Shown here piece by piece: positions 15,935 to 30,264 of a stretch of DNA of 64,000 nt. Location: sequence record PZ445451.1. One strand, written 5' to 3'. A program made the position numbers and the translations under genes. Numbering within the stretch: the stretch's first letter is position 1; the number at the start of each line of letters is the position of its first letter. Under the pieces are notes generated by a model that saw nothing but the letters and a program-made list of their open reading frames with translations, did no database searches and was not told the DNA's origin. The stretch is from a phage.

Positions 15935-17338
15935 ATGACAGCACCAAAATCATGGGAACAATATAAAGAAGAATTAACACCCCTTGCTAAAAATCACAAT
16001 ATTCAAATCCTGGGTTATGTTGGGGAATGGAAAGGGAGCAAGACTAAACTTAAACTATCTTGCCCTGATCATGGAGAGTGGGAAAGTACCACAATCGCTA
16101 AATTTAAAACTAAAGGCAGTAAATGTTGCCCCGATTGCAATGGTCGTAGAAAAGTAACAGAAGAAAAGGAATGTATTTCCCTTGTTGATATTGCTAAAGA
16201 AAGAGGGTTTACTTTTATAGGTCTTGCCGAGGAGTGGCGAGGTGTGCGAACAAAAATTCGCATAGTTTGCCCTAAACATGGAGAGTGGAACACCACGCAC
16301 ATTATTGATTTTAGGAATGGACGTGGTTGTCCTATCTGTTCTGGTAAGAAGCCGTTAACATGGGAAACAGAATTACCGATCTTGGCAGAGATAGCACAGA
16401 AGAAGGGGTATCAGGTGTTAGGGTACGTTGGAAAATGGAAAGGGTGTTACACAAAACTTGATTTGTTGTGTCATTGTGGGAACAGATGGGATACTACAAG
16501 TATTAACAGTTTTAAAAATGGCAATGGTTGTCCTTTATGTAGGAGGGAGAATATAAGGAAGGCAAAAACAATATCCGACGATCAACATATTGCAGATTTC
16601 TTTTCTACAGGGAAATTTAAGGAAGGCACTATCTTCACCAATACAGGGAAACGTAGTTGTAGTAAATCAGGAGATATTATCTGGATGATCGAGTGTCCTG
16701 TTTGCTCCCATGATGAATATGTTCAAGCAGGTGTTTGCGATGGTAAATTTTACTCTAGAGGAAGTGATCTTAAACAAGGAAGTATCCCTTGCCGCTGTGC
16801 AACTAGCTATCATTATACAGAAAATCAGATTACCTACAAAGTGAGAAAGGAAATAGAAAAGAAAGGGTATGTCTGGGTAGATTGGATTACCAAACCATCT
16901 TCTATAGGTAAGTTTAAATATCTTTGTCTTGTACATGGGGAGCAGATAGGGAGTGCTCGTAACTTATTAACTCAAGGGTGTGGGTGTTCACAGTGTGCTG
17001 GTCATAGTCAACAGCAATTATATATTAATATTGTTAAAGATAATGATATTACAGTTGCTCTTAAGTTTGGCATAGCTAAAGATAGTGACAGGCGATTAAA
17101 CAGTCAAAATAGCCGTAATCTGTTTTTTATGGAGCGTATTTGTTTATATGATTTTAGTACAGTGAAACAGTGTAAGGCTGCTGAAAGAGCTATAAAGAAA
17201 AAATTAAAAACTGGTATCTTAACAGCAAGAGAGTTGAAAGATGGTTATACAGAAACAGTAAGTGTTTCTGATTTGGAAAATCTTCAAAAAATTATTACAC
17301 AATATGGTGGCAAATTAGTATACAGTAAGGAGATGTAA
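15935..17338 (+). CDS. Multi-zinc-ribbon repeat protein with C-terminal GIY-YIG/T5orf172-like putative nuclease domain
   Basis: Track ORF; about 6 tandem repeats of CP.HGEW.TT.I..F..G.GCP.C.G; C-terminus ..LYINIVKDNDITVALKFGIAKDSDRRLNSQN..FMERI..AERAIKKKL..GYTETVSVS resembles the GIY-YIG-like T5orf172 fold (inference). Confidence 0.6.
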   Translation: MTAPKSWEQYKEELTPLAKNHNIQILGYVGEWKGSKTKLKLSCPDHGEWESTTIAKFKTKGSKCCPDCNGRRKVTEEKECISLVDIAKERGFTFIGLAEEWRGVRTKIRIVCPKHGEWNTTHIIDFRNGRGCPICSGKKPLTWETELPILAEIAQKKGYQVLGYVGKWKGCYTKLDLLCHCGNRWDTTSINSFKNGNGCPLCRRENIRKAKTISDDQHIADFFSTGKFKEGTIFTNTGKRSCSKSGDIIWMIECPVCSHDEYVQAGVCDGKFYSRGSDLKQGSIPCRCATSYHYTENQITYKVRKEIEKKGYVWVDWITKPSSIGKFKYLCLVHGEQIGSARNLLTQGCGCSQCAGHSQQQLYINIVKDNDITVALKFGIAKDSDRRLNSQNSRNLFFMERICLYDFSTVKQCKAAERAIKKKLKTGILTARELKDGYTETVSVSDLENLQKIITQYGGKLVYSKEM

Positions 17339-17890
17339 ATGCGGATTACTGATAAGTATGTGTTCTTCTTTTCAGCAAAAGATGAATTTAGCAACTGGTA
17401 TCTATCATCTTTTATTGAACCTTTAGCACCCAAGTATAATAATTCTATTACAAGTTCTGTTGAATTTACTTGTGTGGAACAATATATGATGTGGAGAAAA
17501 GCATGTTTGTTTTATGATTACAGTATTGCATCTTCTATTTTAACCGGAGATCTAAGATATACAGGAGAAAAAGAACAAGCATATTATAAGCGACTAGGCA
17601 GATTAGTTAAAGATTATGATGAAGATACCTGGACTTCTTTACGGGAGAAGATTGTCAAACGTGGTTTGTATCTTAAATACACACAAAATGAAGATCTCAA
17701 AAATAAACTTATAGCCTACGCAGATAAGGAGTTCGTAGAGGCAAGCCCCTATGATTCTATTTATGGTATCAAAATGGGGATGTGGGATCGTGATGTGGAA
17801 AATAAGGACTGTTGGAAAGGACAAAATCTTTTAGGAAAATGGCATACAGACCTTGCTGTTTATCTAAAAACACAATCTGATATTTCCTGA
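17339..17890 (+). CDS. NADAR (YbiA/DUF1768) family protein
   Basis: Track ORF; FFFSAKDEFSNW..EQYMMWRKA..W..REKIVKRGLYLKYTQNEDLKNKL..EFVEASPYDSIYGIK..CWKGQNLLGK matches NADAR signature. Confidence 0.8.
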   Translation: MRITDKYVFFFSAKDEFSNWYLSSFIEPLAPKYNNSITSSVEFTCVEQYMMWRKACLFYDYSIASSILTGDLRYTGEKEQAYYKRLGRLVKDYDEDTWTSLREKIVKRGLYLKYTQNEDLKNKLIAYADKEFVEASPYDSIYGIKMGMWDRDVENKDCWKGQNLLGKWHTDLAVYLKTQSDIS

Positions 17891-18101
17891 TATTTTGAAA
17901 ATTTTTATTTTTATAAAAAGGGGTGTGGGTTTCATGTACGGAAATTCACCCTCTGCACAGTATATCCAGAGTAAGTAGTATTCTACACCCTGTTAATAAA
18001 GTATTTAATTTGTTTGTTGGACTATGGTATCTGATCTTTAAAAGGCATACTATCTCTTAACTACTACTTATAACAAAACAGTAAAATCATTTTTATAAAA
18101 A

Positions 18102-18307
18102 GGACAAAATTATTTAAAGTTTTTACAGATTTTTGGATACAAATTTTGAAAATGAAAAGTTCAAGTTTGGTCAAAATTATTTAAAGTTTTTGTACGTATT
18201 TCTATCCAGATTTTGAAAATGAAAACTTCAATTTTTTAAAAATTCCCCAGTTTATTTAAAGTTTTTTTGCCTTTTTCCGTAGAAAAATCAAAAATGAAAA
18301 GTTCAAT
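18102..18307. repeat. Three tandem ~65-70 bp direct repeats (TATTTAAAGTTTTT ... TTTTGAAAATGAAAAGTTCAA)
   Basis: Seen directly: copies start near 18109, 18176 and 18249, in a convergent intergenic region. Confidence 0.7.
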
Positions 18308-18330
18308 TTCGTGTTTTTATAGGTGTGCGT

Positions 18331-18442
18331 ATGATAATCATTCTCATTTGTAAATGAGAATCATTATCATTTAATTATGTAAGTGATAATCATTCTCAGT
18401 AAGAGAATGAGAATCATTAGCAAATGAGAATTTTTCTCATTT
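18331..18442. promoter_or_regulatory. Array of 5 alternately oriented Fur-box-like palindromic motifs (TGATAATCATTCTCATT / AATGAGAATCATTATC)
   Basis: Seen directly; motif shares GATAATCATT core with the Fur box consensus GATAATGATAATCATTATC. Confidence 0.55.
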
Positions 18443-18703
18443 AGAGAATAACGCGCAGGGGCGGTGTTTGTCTCGCGCTCCCGTGTCCCCTCGCCATACA
18501 ATAAGAATAGCATAACCAACAACAAAAGCAAGCGATTATTTTTATCTTTACATTTCTTTACAAATTTATTTTAGACGAGCTACCGGCGATCAACCTTCCA
18601 ACCAGTGCCCCCTGGTATGTTAGCCCCGCCTTTACGCCGTGGGGGTGGCGTTTCCTCTTCTGTATGTAAAACAGTATAAGCCCGATCCCTGGGCTTGTCA
18701 AGA

Positions 18704-18970
18704 TTATTTTTTGTTTTCTTGCCAGGAAAGGACACCTAACCAAAAATACATATCGCCCCGCGCCCCTGGCGGGATCTTGCTTTCCCCGCCGCCACTGCAA
18801 GCCCATAAATAACCATCAGCGAACGGATCAAAATGTTCTATCTCTTCCACCTTATGATCGCCCAGGTTGAGAACGGTTTCAATCTTTAAGCCCGTTGCGC
18901 TTGCTACCTGGTGCACCGTGCCGCCTTGCCAGCCCAATGAGTGCATGAGATGTAAAGGAGTATTTGTCAT
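18704..18970 (-). CDS. Hypothetical protein (88 aa) in a GC-rich segment
   Basis: Track ORF with AAAGGAG SD; local GC content clearly higher than the rest of the window. Confidence 0.45.
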   Translation of the reverse strand: MTNTPLHLMHSLGWQGGTVHQVASATGLKIETVLNLGDHKVEEIEHFDPFADGYLWACSGGGESKIPPGARGDMYFWLGVLSWQENKK

Positions 18971-19234
18971 GGTATCGCCCTTTCTTTGATGTGCGCCCTG
19001 GTTGGCGCGGTAGAAAGATAATAGCCGTTTCCTTTATAGATAGCAAGCAAAAAAGAAATGAAAAAAGATTAAAAATGGTTGACGTTACCAGGATAATAAC
19101 ATATTATTCATCTTGTCGAGGGGGGCAAGGCACAACGACAATAAATAAAAGGCGGGTGCAATGCAGGACGGGCAAAGGTGAGGATCTCCATAATCCACCG
19201 TCACAATAACATTACTTATAAAAGGTTGATAACG

Positions 19235-19339: not shown

Positions 19340-19397
19340 TTGACAACGTTTTTTAATCTGATAAGATGTATCACATAGGGCGGCAATAGTGCCGCTC
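19340..19397 (+). promoter_or_regulatory. sigma70-like promoter (TTGACA/TAAGAT) plus conserved 5' leader hairpin (GGGCGGCAATAGTGCCGCTC)
   Basis: Seen directly upstream of gene 19420. Confidence 0.6.
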
Positions 19398-19419
19398 ATA
19401 ACAGAAGAGAGAAATAATC

Positions 19420-19692
19420 ATGGCATCATATAGCGCATCAATGATCGTAACGGGCATGACTGGTAAACCTATGCGCGGTGGCGGATCTTTCGCTAACATC
19501 AATATTGATGGGCGTTTATCCCTGGATGCAGCGATCACCGTGGCACGGGAAACATTTAAAAAAGAATGTAATTTCAATAAACAAGATTATCTCGGCTTCG
19601 TTATTGAAAAAACAGCGCGCTTTGTTGATTATAAAAGCCCGAAAATGATCGACACTACACTAAAAGCGCAAGATGTAGCATTTTTGCTTTAA
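19420..19692 (+). CDS. Hypothetical protein (90 aa)
   Basis: Track ORF preceded by promoter-hairpin-SD (AGAAGAGAG) unit. Confidence 0.55.
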   Translation: MASYSASMIVTGMTGKPMRGGGSFANINIDGRLSLDAAITVARETFKKECNFNKQDYLGFVIEKTARFVDYKSPKMIDTTLKAQDVAFLL

Positions 19693-22308: not shown

Positions 22309-22368
22309 TTGACAACGTTTTTTAATCTGGTATAGTTTATCGCATAGGGCGGGAAATGGTTTCCCGCC
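22309..22368 (+). promoter_or_regulatory. sigma70-like promoter (TTGACA/TATAGT) plus conserved leader hairpin (GGGCGGGAAATGGTTTCCCGCC)
   Basis: Seen directly; identical hairpin to 19734 copy. Confidence 0.6.
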
Positions 22369-22626: not shown

Positions 22627-22684
22627 TTGACAAGACAACTAAAATTAGTAAAATGTAATTCATAGGGCGGCAATAGTGCCGCCC
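22627..22684 (+). promoter_or_regulatory. sigma70-like promoter (TTGACA/TAAAAT) plus leader hairpin (GGGCGGCAATAGTGCCGCCC)
   Basis: Seen directly; perfect 8-bp stem. Confidence 0.6.
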
Positions 22685-22705
22685 CTAGTAAGAGAGATTA
22701 TCAAA

Positions 22706-25863: not shown

Positions 25864-25922
25864 TTGACACTAGGCAAACAACGTAGTAAAGTTTATCACA
25901 TAGGGCGGCAATAGTGCCGCTC
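25864..25922 (+). promoter_or_regulatory. sigma70-like promoter (TTGACA-N17-TAAAGT) plus leader hairpin (GGGCGGCAATAGTGCCGCTC)
   Basis: Seen directly; same hairpin variant as 19379. Confidence 0.6.
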
Positions 25923-25943
25923 ATAACAGAAGAGAAACAAATC

Positions 25944-26114
25944 ATGATCCCGACTATGTTTTATGTATCGCGCAAAGGTCACAATATTTTTTGGTCTGAA
26001 GATTTAAATGAAGCCATGACGTTTGCCCGTGATCGTGTTGCTATCGGTGGCGTTAACATTACTGTAACCGATGAAAACGGCATTGAATACTATAACGGCG
26101 ACGATGAAGAGTAA
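25944..26114 (+). CDS. Hypothetical protein (56 aa)
   Basis: Track ORF; start moved to MIPTMFYV because the track start lies in the hairpin. Confidence 0.5.
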   Translation: MIPTMFYVSRKGHNIFWSEDLNEAMTFARDRVAIGGVNITVTDENGIEYYNGDDEE

Positions 26115-26161: not shown

Positions 26162-26431
26162 ATGAAAATATCTTTGGACGTTGCAATCAAGGCCATCGAA
26201 TCCGGTTACACCCTGGTAAAAGATGATAAGGCTAAAATAGTGCATCATGTTAACAAGGAAACAGGCGAAAGCATGATCACATATAAAGCCGCCTACTTTC
26301 TCCAATCAGTAGCAGATCCGCGCGTACAACGCCAGGTTACAGCGGCTATTGCTAAAAAATTATGTGCTTTACAGGGCACAAGTTTTAACGAGATCGCCCC
26401 GTGTTTTGACTGGTCGAGCTTGAAAAAATAG
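26162..26431 (+). CDS. Hypothetical protein (89 aa)
   Basis: Track ORF; AAAGAGG SD after hairpin. Confidence 0.55.
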   Translation: MKISLDVAIKAIESGYTLVKDDKAKIVHHVNKETGESMITYKAAYFLQSVADPRVQRQVTAAIAKKLCALQGTSFNEIAPCFDWSSLKK

Positions 26432-26432
26432 T

Positions 26433-26494
26433 TTGACAATATGCTGTTATCTGGTAAAGTGTACGACATAGGGCGAGGCAATAAGGCAACGCCC
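26433..26494 (+). promoter_or_regulatory. sigma70-like promoter (TTGACA/TAAAGT) plus divergent leader hairpin (GGGCGAGGCAATAAGGCAACGCCC)
   Basis: Seen directly. Confidence 0.5.
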
Positions 26495-29106: not shown

Positions 29107-29184
29107 TAAATGATAATCATTCTTATTTATAGCTGATTATTTATGCAATAAACTGCATAATGCAATAATGATAATCATTCTTAA
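29107..29184. promoter_or_regulatory. Two Fur-box-like sites (AAATGATAATCATTCTTA; ATAATGATAATCATTCTTA)
   Basis: Seen directly; second copy matches 16 of 18 positions of Fur consensus ATAATGATAATCATTATC. Confidence 0.55.
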
Positions 29185-29542
29185 CTTATGACCATCTAAC
29201 CTATAAAATAATAAGTTATCTAACTAAATTAAAACTAATTATCCCACCTTTATTTATAACTTACTTTTACTATCTCATTGATAACCTTATATTAAACAAC
29301 AATAACCAATATAAATCATTACTAAGCTAACTATAATCTATCTAACCCTTAAAACTATAACTATAATCTATCGAATTGTTGCACAAAGTAACTATTAAAT
29401 TGTTAGTAACTTTACTAAATAATTAATATCCTATCTATTTATGATCTAATCTTTACCTTACTATCTATTACCTAAATAACCATTTCATACAGAAATTATT
29501 TCATACAATAACTATAACAAGAAATATAATTCGCAAGCGTAT

Positions 29543-30042: not shown

Positions 30043-30066
30043 ATGCAAATGATAATCATTATCAGC
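30043..30066. promoter_or_regulatory. Fur-box-like site (GCAAATGATAATCATTATC)
   Basis: Seen directly; AATGATAATCATTATC is a 16/16 match to the 3' part of the Fur consensus. Confidence 0.6.
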
Positions 30067-30229
30067 TATCTTCCACAGGTGGCACTATTTCACGCCAGAT
30101 CATTTCATTTGGCAAGGTGTATATAGATGTTTAGAAATGCCAAGCCATTGATTTACTTAGAATTTATCTGTTTTGTTGTGAGTAGTGCCTTTCTTGCTCA
30201 GAAAATAATCAAAAGTCTTATAAGTCATT

Positions 30230-30264
30230 GAATGATAATGCAAATGATAATTATTCTCATTGAT
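30230..30264. promoter_or_regulatory. Fur-box-like site (GAATGATAATGCAAATGATAATTATTCTCATT)
   Basis: Seen directly. Confidence 0.5.

Follow-up and report, generated by a model that had tools for sequence, protein, structure and literature searches.

The three tandem direct repeats at positions 18105–18307 of the phage DNA analysed here are bipartite units under purifying selection. We tentatively interpret them as repeated recognition sites for a lineage-specific factor within a transcribed control region, most plausibly a transcription-activated replication origin. The recognising factor would most likely be a phage-encoded protein. The DNA (hereafter the window) is a stretch of 64,000 nucleotides from sequence record PZ445451.1, and it is 100% identical to Escherichia phage PaulScherrer (Bas60, MZ501100.1), a phi92-like Justusliebigvirus of the subfamily Stephanstirmvirinae. 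Positions are those of the window, to which 64675 is added to obtain the record coordinate, and the genome-wide scans covered 150 kb of the genome record. The repeat array is located in a gene-poor stretch of approximately 1.3–1.5 kb. The sequence comparisons bear on the anatomy, conservation, and promoter orientation of this stretch; protein binding, promoter firing, and a start of replication at the array are inferred.

A preliminary description of this DNA had reported three head-to-tail repeats of about 67 bp at 18102–18307, and the three repeats were borne out by reading of the sequence, by Tandem Repeats Finder, and by a gapless repeat finder. Tandem Repeats Finder returned 18105–18235 with a period of 67, 2.0 copies, 82% matches, and a score of 185. 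The gapless finder returned three 79-nt copies starting at 18089, 18156, and 18231 (spacing of 67 and 75 bp), with copies 2 and 3 being 73% and 71% identical to copy 1. The 67-bp period holds between units 1 and 2, but the next spacing is 75 bp and the period is not uniform. The units are composed as follows.

18105–18171 (67 bp): repeat unit 1, with box A at 18111–18124, a spacer, and box B at 18149–18164.
18172–18246 (75 bp): repeat unit 2, with box A at 18178–18191, box B at 18216–18231 (one mismatch), and a TTTTTTAAAAATTCCCC linker.
18247–18307: repeat unit 3, with box A at 18253–18266, a spacer containing a TTTTTC-CGTA-GAAAAA inverted repeat, and box B at 18291–18306.

Box A (TATTTAAAGTTTTT) is present as three exact copies, at 18111, 18178, and 18253, and box B (AAAATGAAAAGTTCAA) is found at 18149, 18216 (the copy with one mismatch), and 18291. 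The distance from the start of box A to the start of box B is 38 nt in all three units, and the 24-nt spacer between the boxes is less conserved and differs among the units. The common unit ending that had been described does not extend to unit 3, in which box B is preceded by ATCAAAAATG instead of TTTTGAAAATG and is itself divergent in its left half. No further copy of box A or box B was found at 0–1 mismatches in the window or the 150-kb genome, and looser matches occurred at the chance level, as in shuffled sequence. The repeats had been judged not to be CRISPR repeats, and the presence of two different boxes in each unit and of spacers that are kept across genomes (5/78 columns variable) agrees with that judgement.

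We aligned the 570-bp gap from six Justusliebigvirus genomes (PaulScherrer, alia, phi92, muut, A150, and SD2) to compare the variability of its parts. The proportion of variable columns was 2.9% (6/204) in the repeat array, 4.6% in the hairpin at 17921–17955, 12.1% in the Fur-like palindromes, and 17.3% (23/133) in the upstream spacer (17956–18088). The adjacent spacer is six times as variable as the array (Fisher p = 1e-5). Only one of the 126 box columns was variable, at 18105 on the outer edge of the array, and the remaining five changes in the array all fell between the boxes (18126 and 18137 in unit 1, 18195 and 18204 in unit 2, and 18269 in unit 3). Judged from this alignment, the array is the most constrained part of the non-coding DNA of the gap, and the constraint acts on the sequence itself.

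Absence of the repeats from close relatives, which the preliminary description had named, together with the lack of a replication or packaging phenotype on deletion, as speaking against its reading, was not what we found: the triple array is present across two subfamilies. The same layout was observed in Phapecoctavirus phAPEC8 and two Klebsiella relatives, in the Vequintavirinae (PVP-SE1, CR3, KB57, ChuuTotoro, SalP219, Erwinia Henunavirus, FENT2, GAP31, phiTE, and Ro1), and in uncultured viral contigs. The groups carrying the triple array are Justusliebigvirus, Phapecoctavirus, the Klebsiella relatives, Seunavirus, Mydovirus, Certrevirus, and Henunavirus. In this layout, GATATTT motifs directly after the upstream gene are followed by a hairpin, a variable stretch, the three units, one to five Fur-box-like palindromes, a GC-rich element, a small minus-strand open reading frame (ORF), and the early genes. 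Three units were counted at every locus at which the array was read directly, with the record of Salmonella phage RUS_R7 as the sole exception, and Tandem Repeats Finder gave a period of 66–68 bp at nine loci. The unit spacings are 67 and 75 bp in the Stephanstirmvirinae (the window phage and Klebsiella phi1_175008) and 74–78 and 63–67 bp in the Vequintavirinae, and the first and third units lie 140–143 bp apart wherever measurable. Taken over all of these groups, a period of 66–67 bp is combined with one longer spacing of 74–78 bp.

Some records show peculiarities in this region. The RUS_R7 record (PQ002170.1; loci L038/L039) begins and ends within the array, with an 80-bp overlap annotated as attL/attR, and its array holds only two units, with an R2/R3 hybrid, as the result of either an assembly collapse or a natural deletion of one unit. 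In Raoultella phage Ro1, a minus-strand ORF of approximately 600 bp is inserted in the GC-rich element (locus L031, 70–690 nt upstream of the anchor), the GC-rich core is partly duplicated, and the three repeats are kept farther upstream; this arrangement suggests an insertion of the homing-endonuclease type. In GenBank, bare repeat_region features cover units 1–2 and part of the palindromes in alia, and both bare repeat_region features of muut lie within the palindrome region.

The box sequences are lineage-specific. The Vequintavirinae units read GGTWCTCGATCG ... TTTTCAAAATCGAAAACGTATTTTTT ... GAAAAAATTTTT, and by eye only an A-tract pair, [C/G]AAAA[T/C](C)[C/G]AAAA[C/G], and an A/T-tract junction seem common to the phi92-like and Vequintavirinae units. 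In the Erwinia phage, all three units have changed alike and read ...AAAATGGATTTTC... The mean identity between units within one genome was 0.73–0.76 versus 0.68–0.71 between non-orthologous units of different genomes (p = 0.002–0.005), and units at the same position in different genomes were slightly more alike (0.72–0.74; p = 0.007–0.04). This pattern of identities within and between genomes indicates that the triplication is old, that the three positions are to some extent distinct from one another, and that the boxes change together. Such a coordinated change, as read from the alignments, is the pattern expected of sites that would co-evolve with a lineage-specific trans factor.

We searched the units for other kinds of function. 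No Rfam family or tRNA was matched in the units. RNA folding of 27 units from nine phages gave no signal over dinucleotide shuffles (mean z of −0.06 on the plus strand and −0.42 on the minus strand, with pseudoknots outside the model). T-rich/A-rich inverted repeats with variable loops, which were considered as RNA hairpins, occur in several units, yet overall folding was not above that of the shuffles. A consensus scan of the units for sigma-70 promoters gave only one weak site (TAGAAA-17-AATAAT, 9/12, minus strand of unit 2), and no acceptable −35/−10 pair was found on reading each unit on both strands. Small peptides were rejected, the units containing just short UUG/ATG frames that have no ribosome sites and are not kept in other lineages. 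E. coli genomes contained no sequence similar to the array and plasmids gave chance-level matches only; a host origin of the repeats or of the GC-rich segment was ruled out by the lack of a match in the E. coli genomes.

The array lies among further elements, which are listed below.

17877–17895, plus strand: CTGATATTT(C) motif pair, directly after the NADAR stop codon (Tandem Repeats Finder period 10, 1.9 copies).
17921–17955, plus strand: GC hairpin 3' of the plus-strand operon, without a good U tail.
17956–18088: fast-evolving spacer between the hairpin and the array.
18326–18449: five Fur-box-like 7-1-7 palindromes (TGAKAATnATTMTCA), at 18332, 18355, 18384, 18408, and 18425.
18450–18502, minus strand: GC-rich segment with a possible hairpin followed by TTATTCTCT, a candidate leader or terminator (17-phage alignment).
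18504–18566, minus strand: P2 region, a weak promoter with the −35 at 18531–18526 and the −10 at 18509–18504, and an alternative TTGTAA-17-AATAAT at 18563–18535.
18570–18666, minus strand: most conserved core of the GC-rich element, just downstream of P1, with 80–85% identity across subfamilies.
18701–18673, minus strand: P1, a sigma-70-type promoter (TTGACA-17-TATACT, 11/12 consensus) directed at the palindromes and repeats.
18704–18970, minus strand: ORF of 88 amino acids (bas60_0113, phrog_19316).

The −35 and −10 of P1 are conserved in 17 phages and the spacer between them is variable. In PVP-SE1 and KB57, the scan independently called P1, P2, and P3 one after another ahead of the array; P3 (TTGACA-18-GAAAAT or TTGACT-17-GATACT, both with the extended −10 TG) lies between the last palindrome and repeat 3. 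The sigma-70-like sites of the module, including every promoter-like site in these two phages, all lie on the minus strand and face the array. The segment downstream of the minus-strand promoters is gene-free, and no ORF follows them. Just upstream of P2, the sequence GTAAA-N5-GTAAA (18547–18561, minus strand) is invariant; it has a single further occurrence in the genome and corresponds to the CpxR-box consensus (PMC9603713). An insertion of 9–10 bp, or approximately one helical turn, separates this CpxR-type box from the −35 of P2 in three of the four aligned Stephanstirmvirinae and is absent in Klebsiella phi1_175008.

The first Fur-like palindrome begins 24 nt past the end of the array. 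The genome contains nine Fur-like boxes, all in two non-coding gaps, with five beside the array and four at 29109–29185 and 30046–30264 (29.1–30.3 kb). The same box, AAATGAGAATCATT(A/C)TCATTTGCA, is found in T5-like phages, where it fills the DRC/palindrome part of Repeat Region 3 of T5 (locus L019 4960–5150), the putative injection-stop region. In the second gap of the window phage (29090–30715, approximately 1.6 kb), several short repeats accompany the four Fur-like boxes, and the stability of the genome in windows of 200 and 300 bp reaches its minimum there (21% GC). This gap might just as well serve as an origin or as a control region.

In regards to the GC-rich element (18450–18701), it is conserved in 237 phage records with indels that are not multiples of three, and it gave no Rfam match. 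The compensatory and G-U changes in one variable hairpin of the core speak for the minus strand. The core is a candidate for a new structured phage RNA or for a protein-binding platform. The single-sequence fold of the segment at 18450–18502 was not above shuffles (z 0.05).

On the other side of the array, all relatives examined (phAPEC8, KP2025, PVP-SE1, CR3, KB57, ChuuTotoro, Erwinia, and FENT2) carry two to four copies of GATATTT at this position. The hairpin at 17921–17955 folds better on the plus strand (−17.3 kcal/mol, z −2.2) than on the minus strand (−9.3 kcal/mol, z −0.26), which rules it out as a minus-strand terminator and indicates that it probably closes the upstream operon before the array. 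The hairpin and spacer (17922–18088, 167 bp) are bracketed by an exact 15-bp direct repeat, ATTTTTATAAAAAGG, at 17907–17921 and 18089–18103. This repeat was seen only in Justusliebigvirus and could be the footprint of an insertion.

The gap had been described as convergent, and it is so: the plus-strand NADAR gene, the last gene of the operon on the left flank, ends at 17890 and the minus-strand 88-amino-acid ORF ends at 18704. Two minus-strand ORFs are annotated in the gene-poor stretch, both small. The other (18064–18174, with a TTG start and overlapping repeat unit 1) looks spurious. An ORF at the position of the 88-amino-acid ORF is common among the relatives and is not homologous between the subfamilies. 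A role of the small minus-strand ORF as the cognate binding protein was rejected, as it is exchanged for unrelated ORFs while the boxes stay unchanged. The neighbours of the array comprise an AAA ATPase, a CapR/T5orf172 endonuclease-like protein, the NADAR protein, and small ORFs without assigned function. RefSeq and PHROGs both list the endonuclease-like protein (467 amino acids, 15935–17338; four CapR homology domains and one T5orf172 domain) as an endonuclease. In PVP-SE1, the equivalent position is occupied by an HNH endonuclease, so that mobile nucleases seem to home beside the module.

The right flank is a long series of small plus-strand genes from approximately 19.08 kb, each with its own sigma-70-type promoter. 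The leader of the first early promoter (19108–19234) carries GGGCAAAGGTGAGGATCTCCATAATCCA, which is found again in KB57 (locus L012 ~2585–2615), and this leader may be another conserved leader RNA. Cassettes of a promoter and a 5'-leader (TTGACA...TAAGAT, then the hairpin GGGCGGCAATAGTGCCGCTC) are repeated ahead of many small early genes, as seen on comparison of 19340–19420 with 25894–25944, 22309–22355, 22649–22697, and 26423–26483. The hairpin part of the cassette is annotated as PHIRE 'promoters' in phAPEC8.

We propose the following mechanism. The array is part of a module of approximately 0.8 kb, conserved in two subfamilies, in which P1, the GC-rich element, the CpxR-type box with P2, the Fur-like palindromes (with P3 in the Vequintavirinae), and the three repeats follow one another along the minus strand. 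Host RNA polymerase would transcribe from P1–P3 into the array, which in the phi92-like phages is predicted to have the strongest curvature in the genome and to be among its most easily melted segments. Opening of the DNA for a replisome consisting of a T7-type primase-helicase and PolA may then be aided by the transcript and the bound factor. The phage carries genes for a T7-type primase/helicase and a PolA-type polymerase, and no annotated initiator was found in the 150 kb of the record. Precedents are provided by the lambda ori, whose curved iterons are activated by transcription, by the T7 primary origin, by T4 oriF and oriG, which consist of a promoter and an unwinding element, and by the ori of lactococcal phage c2, which has a non-coding transcript.

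The physical properties of the array were calculated for the whole genome. In a wedge model, curvature across the 150-kb genome peaks in the 200 bp from 18089, at 21.5 degrees (genome mean 11.1, sd 5.9; the runner-up reached 18.5 degrees); the wedge angles are reportedly those of Bolshoy et al. 1991. In a ranking of non-overlapping windows of 100, 200, and 300 bp by low stability, the array region took second to fourth place. The GC content of the array is 22–23% in three Stephanstirmvirinae (22% in the window phage) and 32–38% in Seunavirus, Mydovirus, and the Erwinia Henunavirus. The plus-strand GC skew falls to −0.19 at 18350–18950, where the transcribed strand is G-rich, and this is the only hint of a persistent RNA-DNA hybrid primer.

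Several observations weigh against an origin at the array. Only the Justusliebigvirus arrays reach extreme curvature; those of phAPEC8 and KP2025 are moderately curved and those of the Vequintavirinae lie close to the background, so that intrinsic curvature was ruled out as a conserved property. The GC content of the array is close to the genome average in Certrevirus and ChuuTotoro; AT-rich unwinding was ruled out as a conserved property on these grounds, and melting cannot be the array's own conserved function because the AT-richness is absent in these phages. Because neither curvature nor AT-richness is universal, the conserved property is the set of phased recognition boxes and not bending or melting. 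The consensus sequences of the DnaA box (TTWTNCACA) and of IHF (WATCAANNNNTTR) had no match in 17850–19120, compared with 30 and 19 matches genome-wide, and no gene for an initiator, a ParB-like protein, or a small terminase was found among the genes adjoining the array; the lack of an initiator gene among them counts against an origin. The cumulative GC skew tracks gene orientation and gives no signal at the array, P2 and P3 are weak in the window phage, and none of the flanking genes is conserved between the two subfamilies. Furthermore, the units are 67 bp long and bipartite rather than 17–22 bp, and none of the spacings (67, 75, and 38 bp) corresponds to an integral number of helical turns. 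The rV5 genome paper shows an unexplained 'non-coding' box on its map; its authors judged the skew in the same way and located no origin from it. No function for the region was reported in the literature searched (Fur boxes in phages, rV5-like origins, and transcriptomes of the subfamilies).

The repeats had been called iteron-like. They behave as selected, sequence-specific cis repeats, with invariant boxes, a conserved number and period, joint changes of the boxes, and no RNA-structure signal, but in unit length, helical register, DnaA/IHF sites, and a nearby initiator gene they depart from iterons. Membership in the classical iteron family is not supported, and 'iteron-like' is a fair term for the behaviour of the repeats.

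As the main rival explanation, the array could instead be the body of a non-coding RNA transcribed from P1–P3 on the minus strand, with three largely unstructured modules acting as a sponge or decoy for an RNA-binding protein, a toxin, or another RNA, and with an output tuned at the Fur-like and CpxR-like sites. We regard this explanation as possible, if doubtful. It would account for three tandem minus-strand promoters that are aimed at the array with no ORF after them, for the hairpin that ends the plus-strand operon ahead of the array, and for the conservation of sequence rather than structure, which is expected of a target for single-strand binding. Moreover, the related phage phiTE employs tandem RNA repeats (pseudo-ToxI) against a type III toxin. 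However, the pseudo-ToxI locus adjoins the tRNA and spanin genes and is not the array, and the units of 67–75 nt, which are 71–73% identical over the 79-nt copies, contrast with the 36-nt ToxI repeats. No minus-strand terminator was found downstream, the units gave no structure signal, and P2 and P3 of the window phage are weak for such a transcript. In addition, no complementary target was found elsewhere in the genome, including no second copy of box B for antisense pairing on either strand, and nothing similar was found in E. coli genomes or plasmids. A more specific version, in which a three-module RNA read from iron (Fur-like) and envelope-stress (CpxR-type) promoters would serve as a decoy against a host factor or defence, would be kept in both subfamilies, and would belong to a wider class of non-coding hubs, rich in host-regulator sites, that T5-like phages also have, seems rather unlikely to us. 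The array might also be architectural or regulatory DNA, in the form of operators that block or time P1–P3 or of an insulator between the upstream operon and the early genes (~19.1 kb). Its position at the boundary between the plus-strand operon and the small early genes with their own sigma-70 promoters, its adjacency to host-regulator sites, and its strong curvature in the window phage would fit such a role. We nevertheless consider it unlikely, given that the nearest early promoter is approximately 800 bp away, that P1–P3 have no obvious gene to control, and that the boxes are missing from all other promoter regions of the genome.

Packaging was also considered, with the array as a pac recognition site whose three repeats are bound by the small terminase in a manner comparable to the R sites of lambda cosB. 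The relatives are circularly permuted and terminally redundant, which demands a pac site in some part of the genome, and three co-evolving direct repeats on bent DNA fit terminase-binding sites in general. A few GenBank records start less than 1 kb from the array, but the other record starts are scattered, and the end of the RUS_R7 record in the array, with its 80-bp overlap and collapsed unit, indicates an assembly break at the repeats; the nearby record starts were ruled out as evidence for pac on this account. Together with the distance of approximately 80 kb to the large terminase gene (record 676–2760 versus the array at ~82.8 kb) and the lack of an adjacent small-terminase-like gene, this makes a pac site highly improbable. 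Finally, a functionless remnant of a neutral tandem duplication in an AT-rich spacer would be compatible with the low complexity of the AT-rich sequence and with its annotation as a bare repeat_region only. It is scarcely credible for an array that is six-fold more conserved than the adjacent non-coding DNA and keeps three units of the same period in two subfamilies whose sequences no longer align, and we excluded it because of this conservation.

The rV5-like and phi92-like phages are broad-host-range candidates for therapy, and no mapped origin, early control region, or packaging signal was reported for them in the literature searched. The present analysis defines a deeply conserved gene-free module with exact coordinates, comprising the repeats, the Fur-like boxes, the CpxR-type box, three promoters, and the GC-rich core. 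If the array is an origin, it would represent an unusual iteron type with a long period and bipartite units, and it would provide a handle for phage engineering and for plasmid-borne resistance traps made from the cloned origin. If it encodes an RNA, this would be a regulatory phage RNA of a new class, linked to the iron and envelope signals of the host. The Fur-like boxes in common link the module to the long-unexplained injection-stop region of T5.

We compared the array with known systems. The sopC site of F (43-bp repeats) also consists of long-period tandem direct repeats that are protein-binding sites, whereas the phage has three copies only, has no ParA/ParB-like genes, and, being virulent, has no need for partition. 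ToxI and the phiTE pseudo-ToxI are similar in being tandem non-coding direct repeats, in the latter case in a phage of the same subfamily, that are probably transcribed; the ToxI units are near-identical 36-nt pseudoknots, whereas the array units are 67–75 nt long and 71–73% identical, give no structure signal, and have no toxin partner. Repeat Region 3 of T5 shares with the array a long untranslated sequence, dense direct repeats and palindromes, family-wide occurrence, and the same Fur-like boxes. It differs in lying in a fixed terminal repeat and in having DnaA boxes and 14-bp DRD repeats, and T5 has no counterpart of the 67-bp units. A two-step injection signal is unlikely at the array because these phages are circularly permuted.

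The transcription-primed origins (T7 primary origin, T4 oriF/oriG, and c2 ori) lack long tandem repeats. The promoters at the array are of the host sigma-70 type with Fur-like and CpxR-like sites, and its AT-richness is not kept in all genera. These origins resemble the array in having tandem promoters that lead into a gene-free AT-rich segment and in the use of a T7-type replisome (primase-helicase and PolA) with no dedicated initiator. In regards to the iteron origins (lambda ori and the pSC101/P1 oriR type), their units are 17–22 bp long, in contrast to the bipartite units of 67–75 bp described here, which have no helical phasing, DnaA/IHF consensus, or nearby initiator gene. The array and these origins are alike in consisting of several direct repeats of one recognition sequence that, for the window phage, are curved and lie beside easily melted DNA, in the transcription directed toward the repeats, and in the joint change of the repeats within a lineage.

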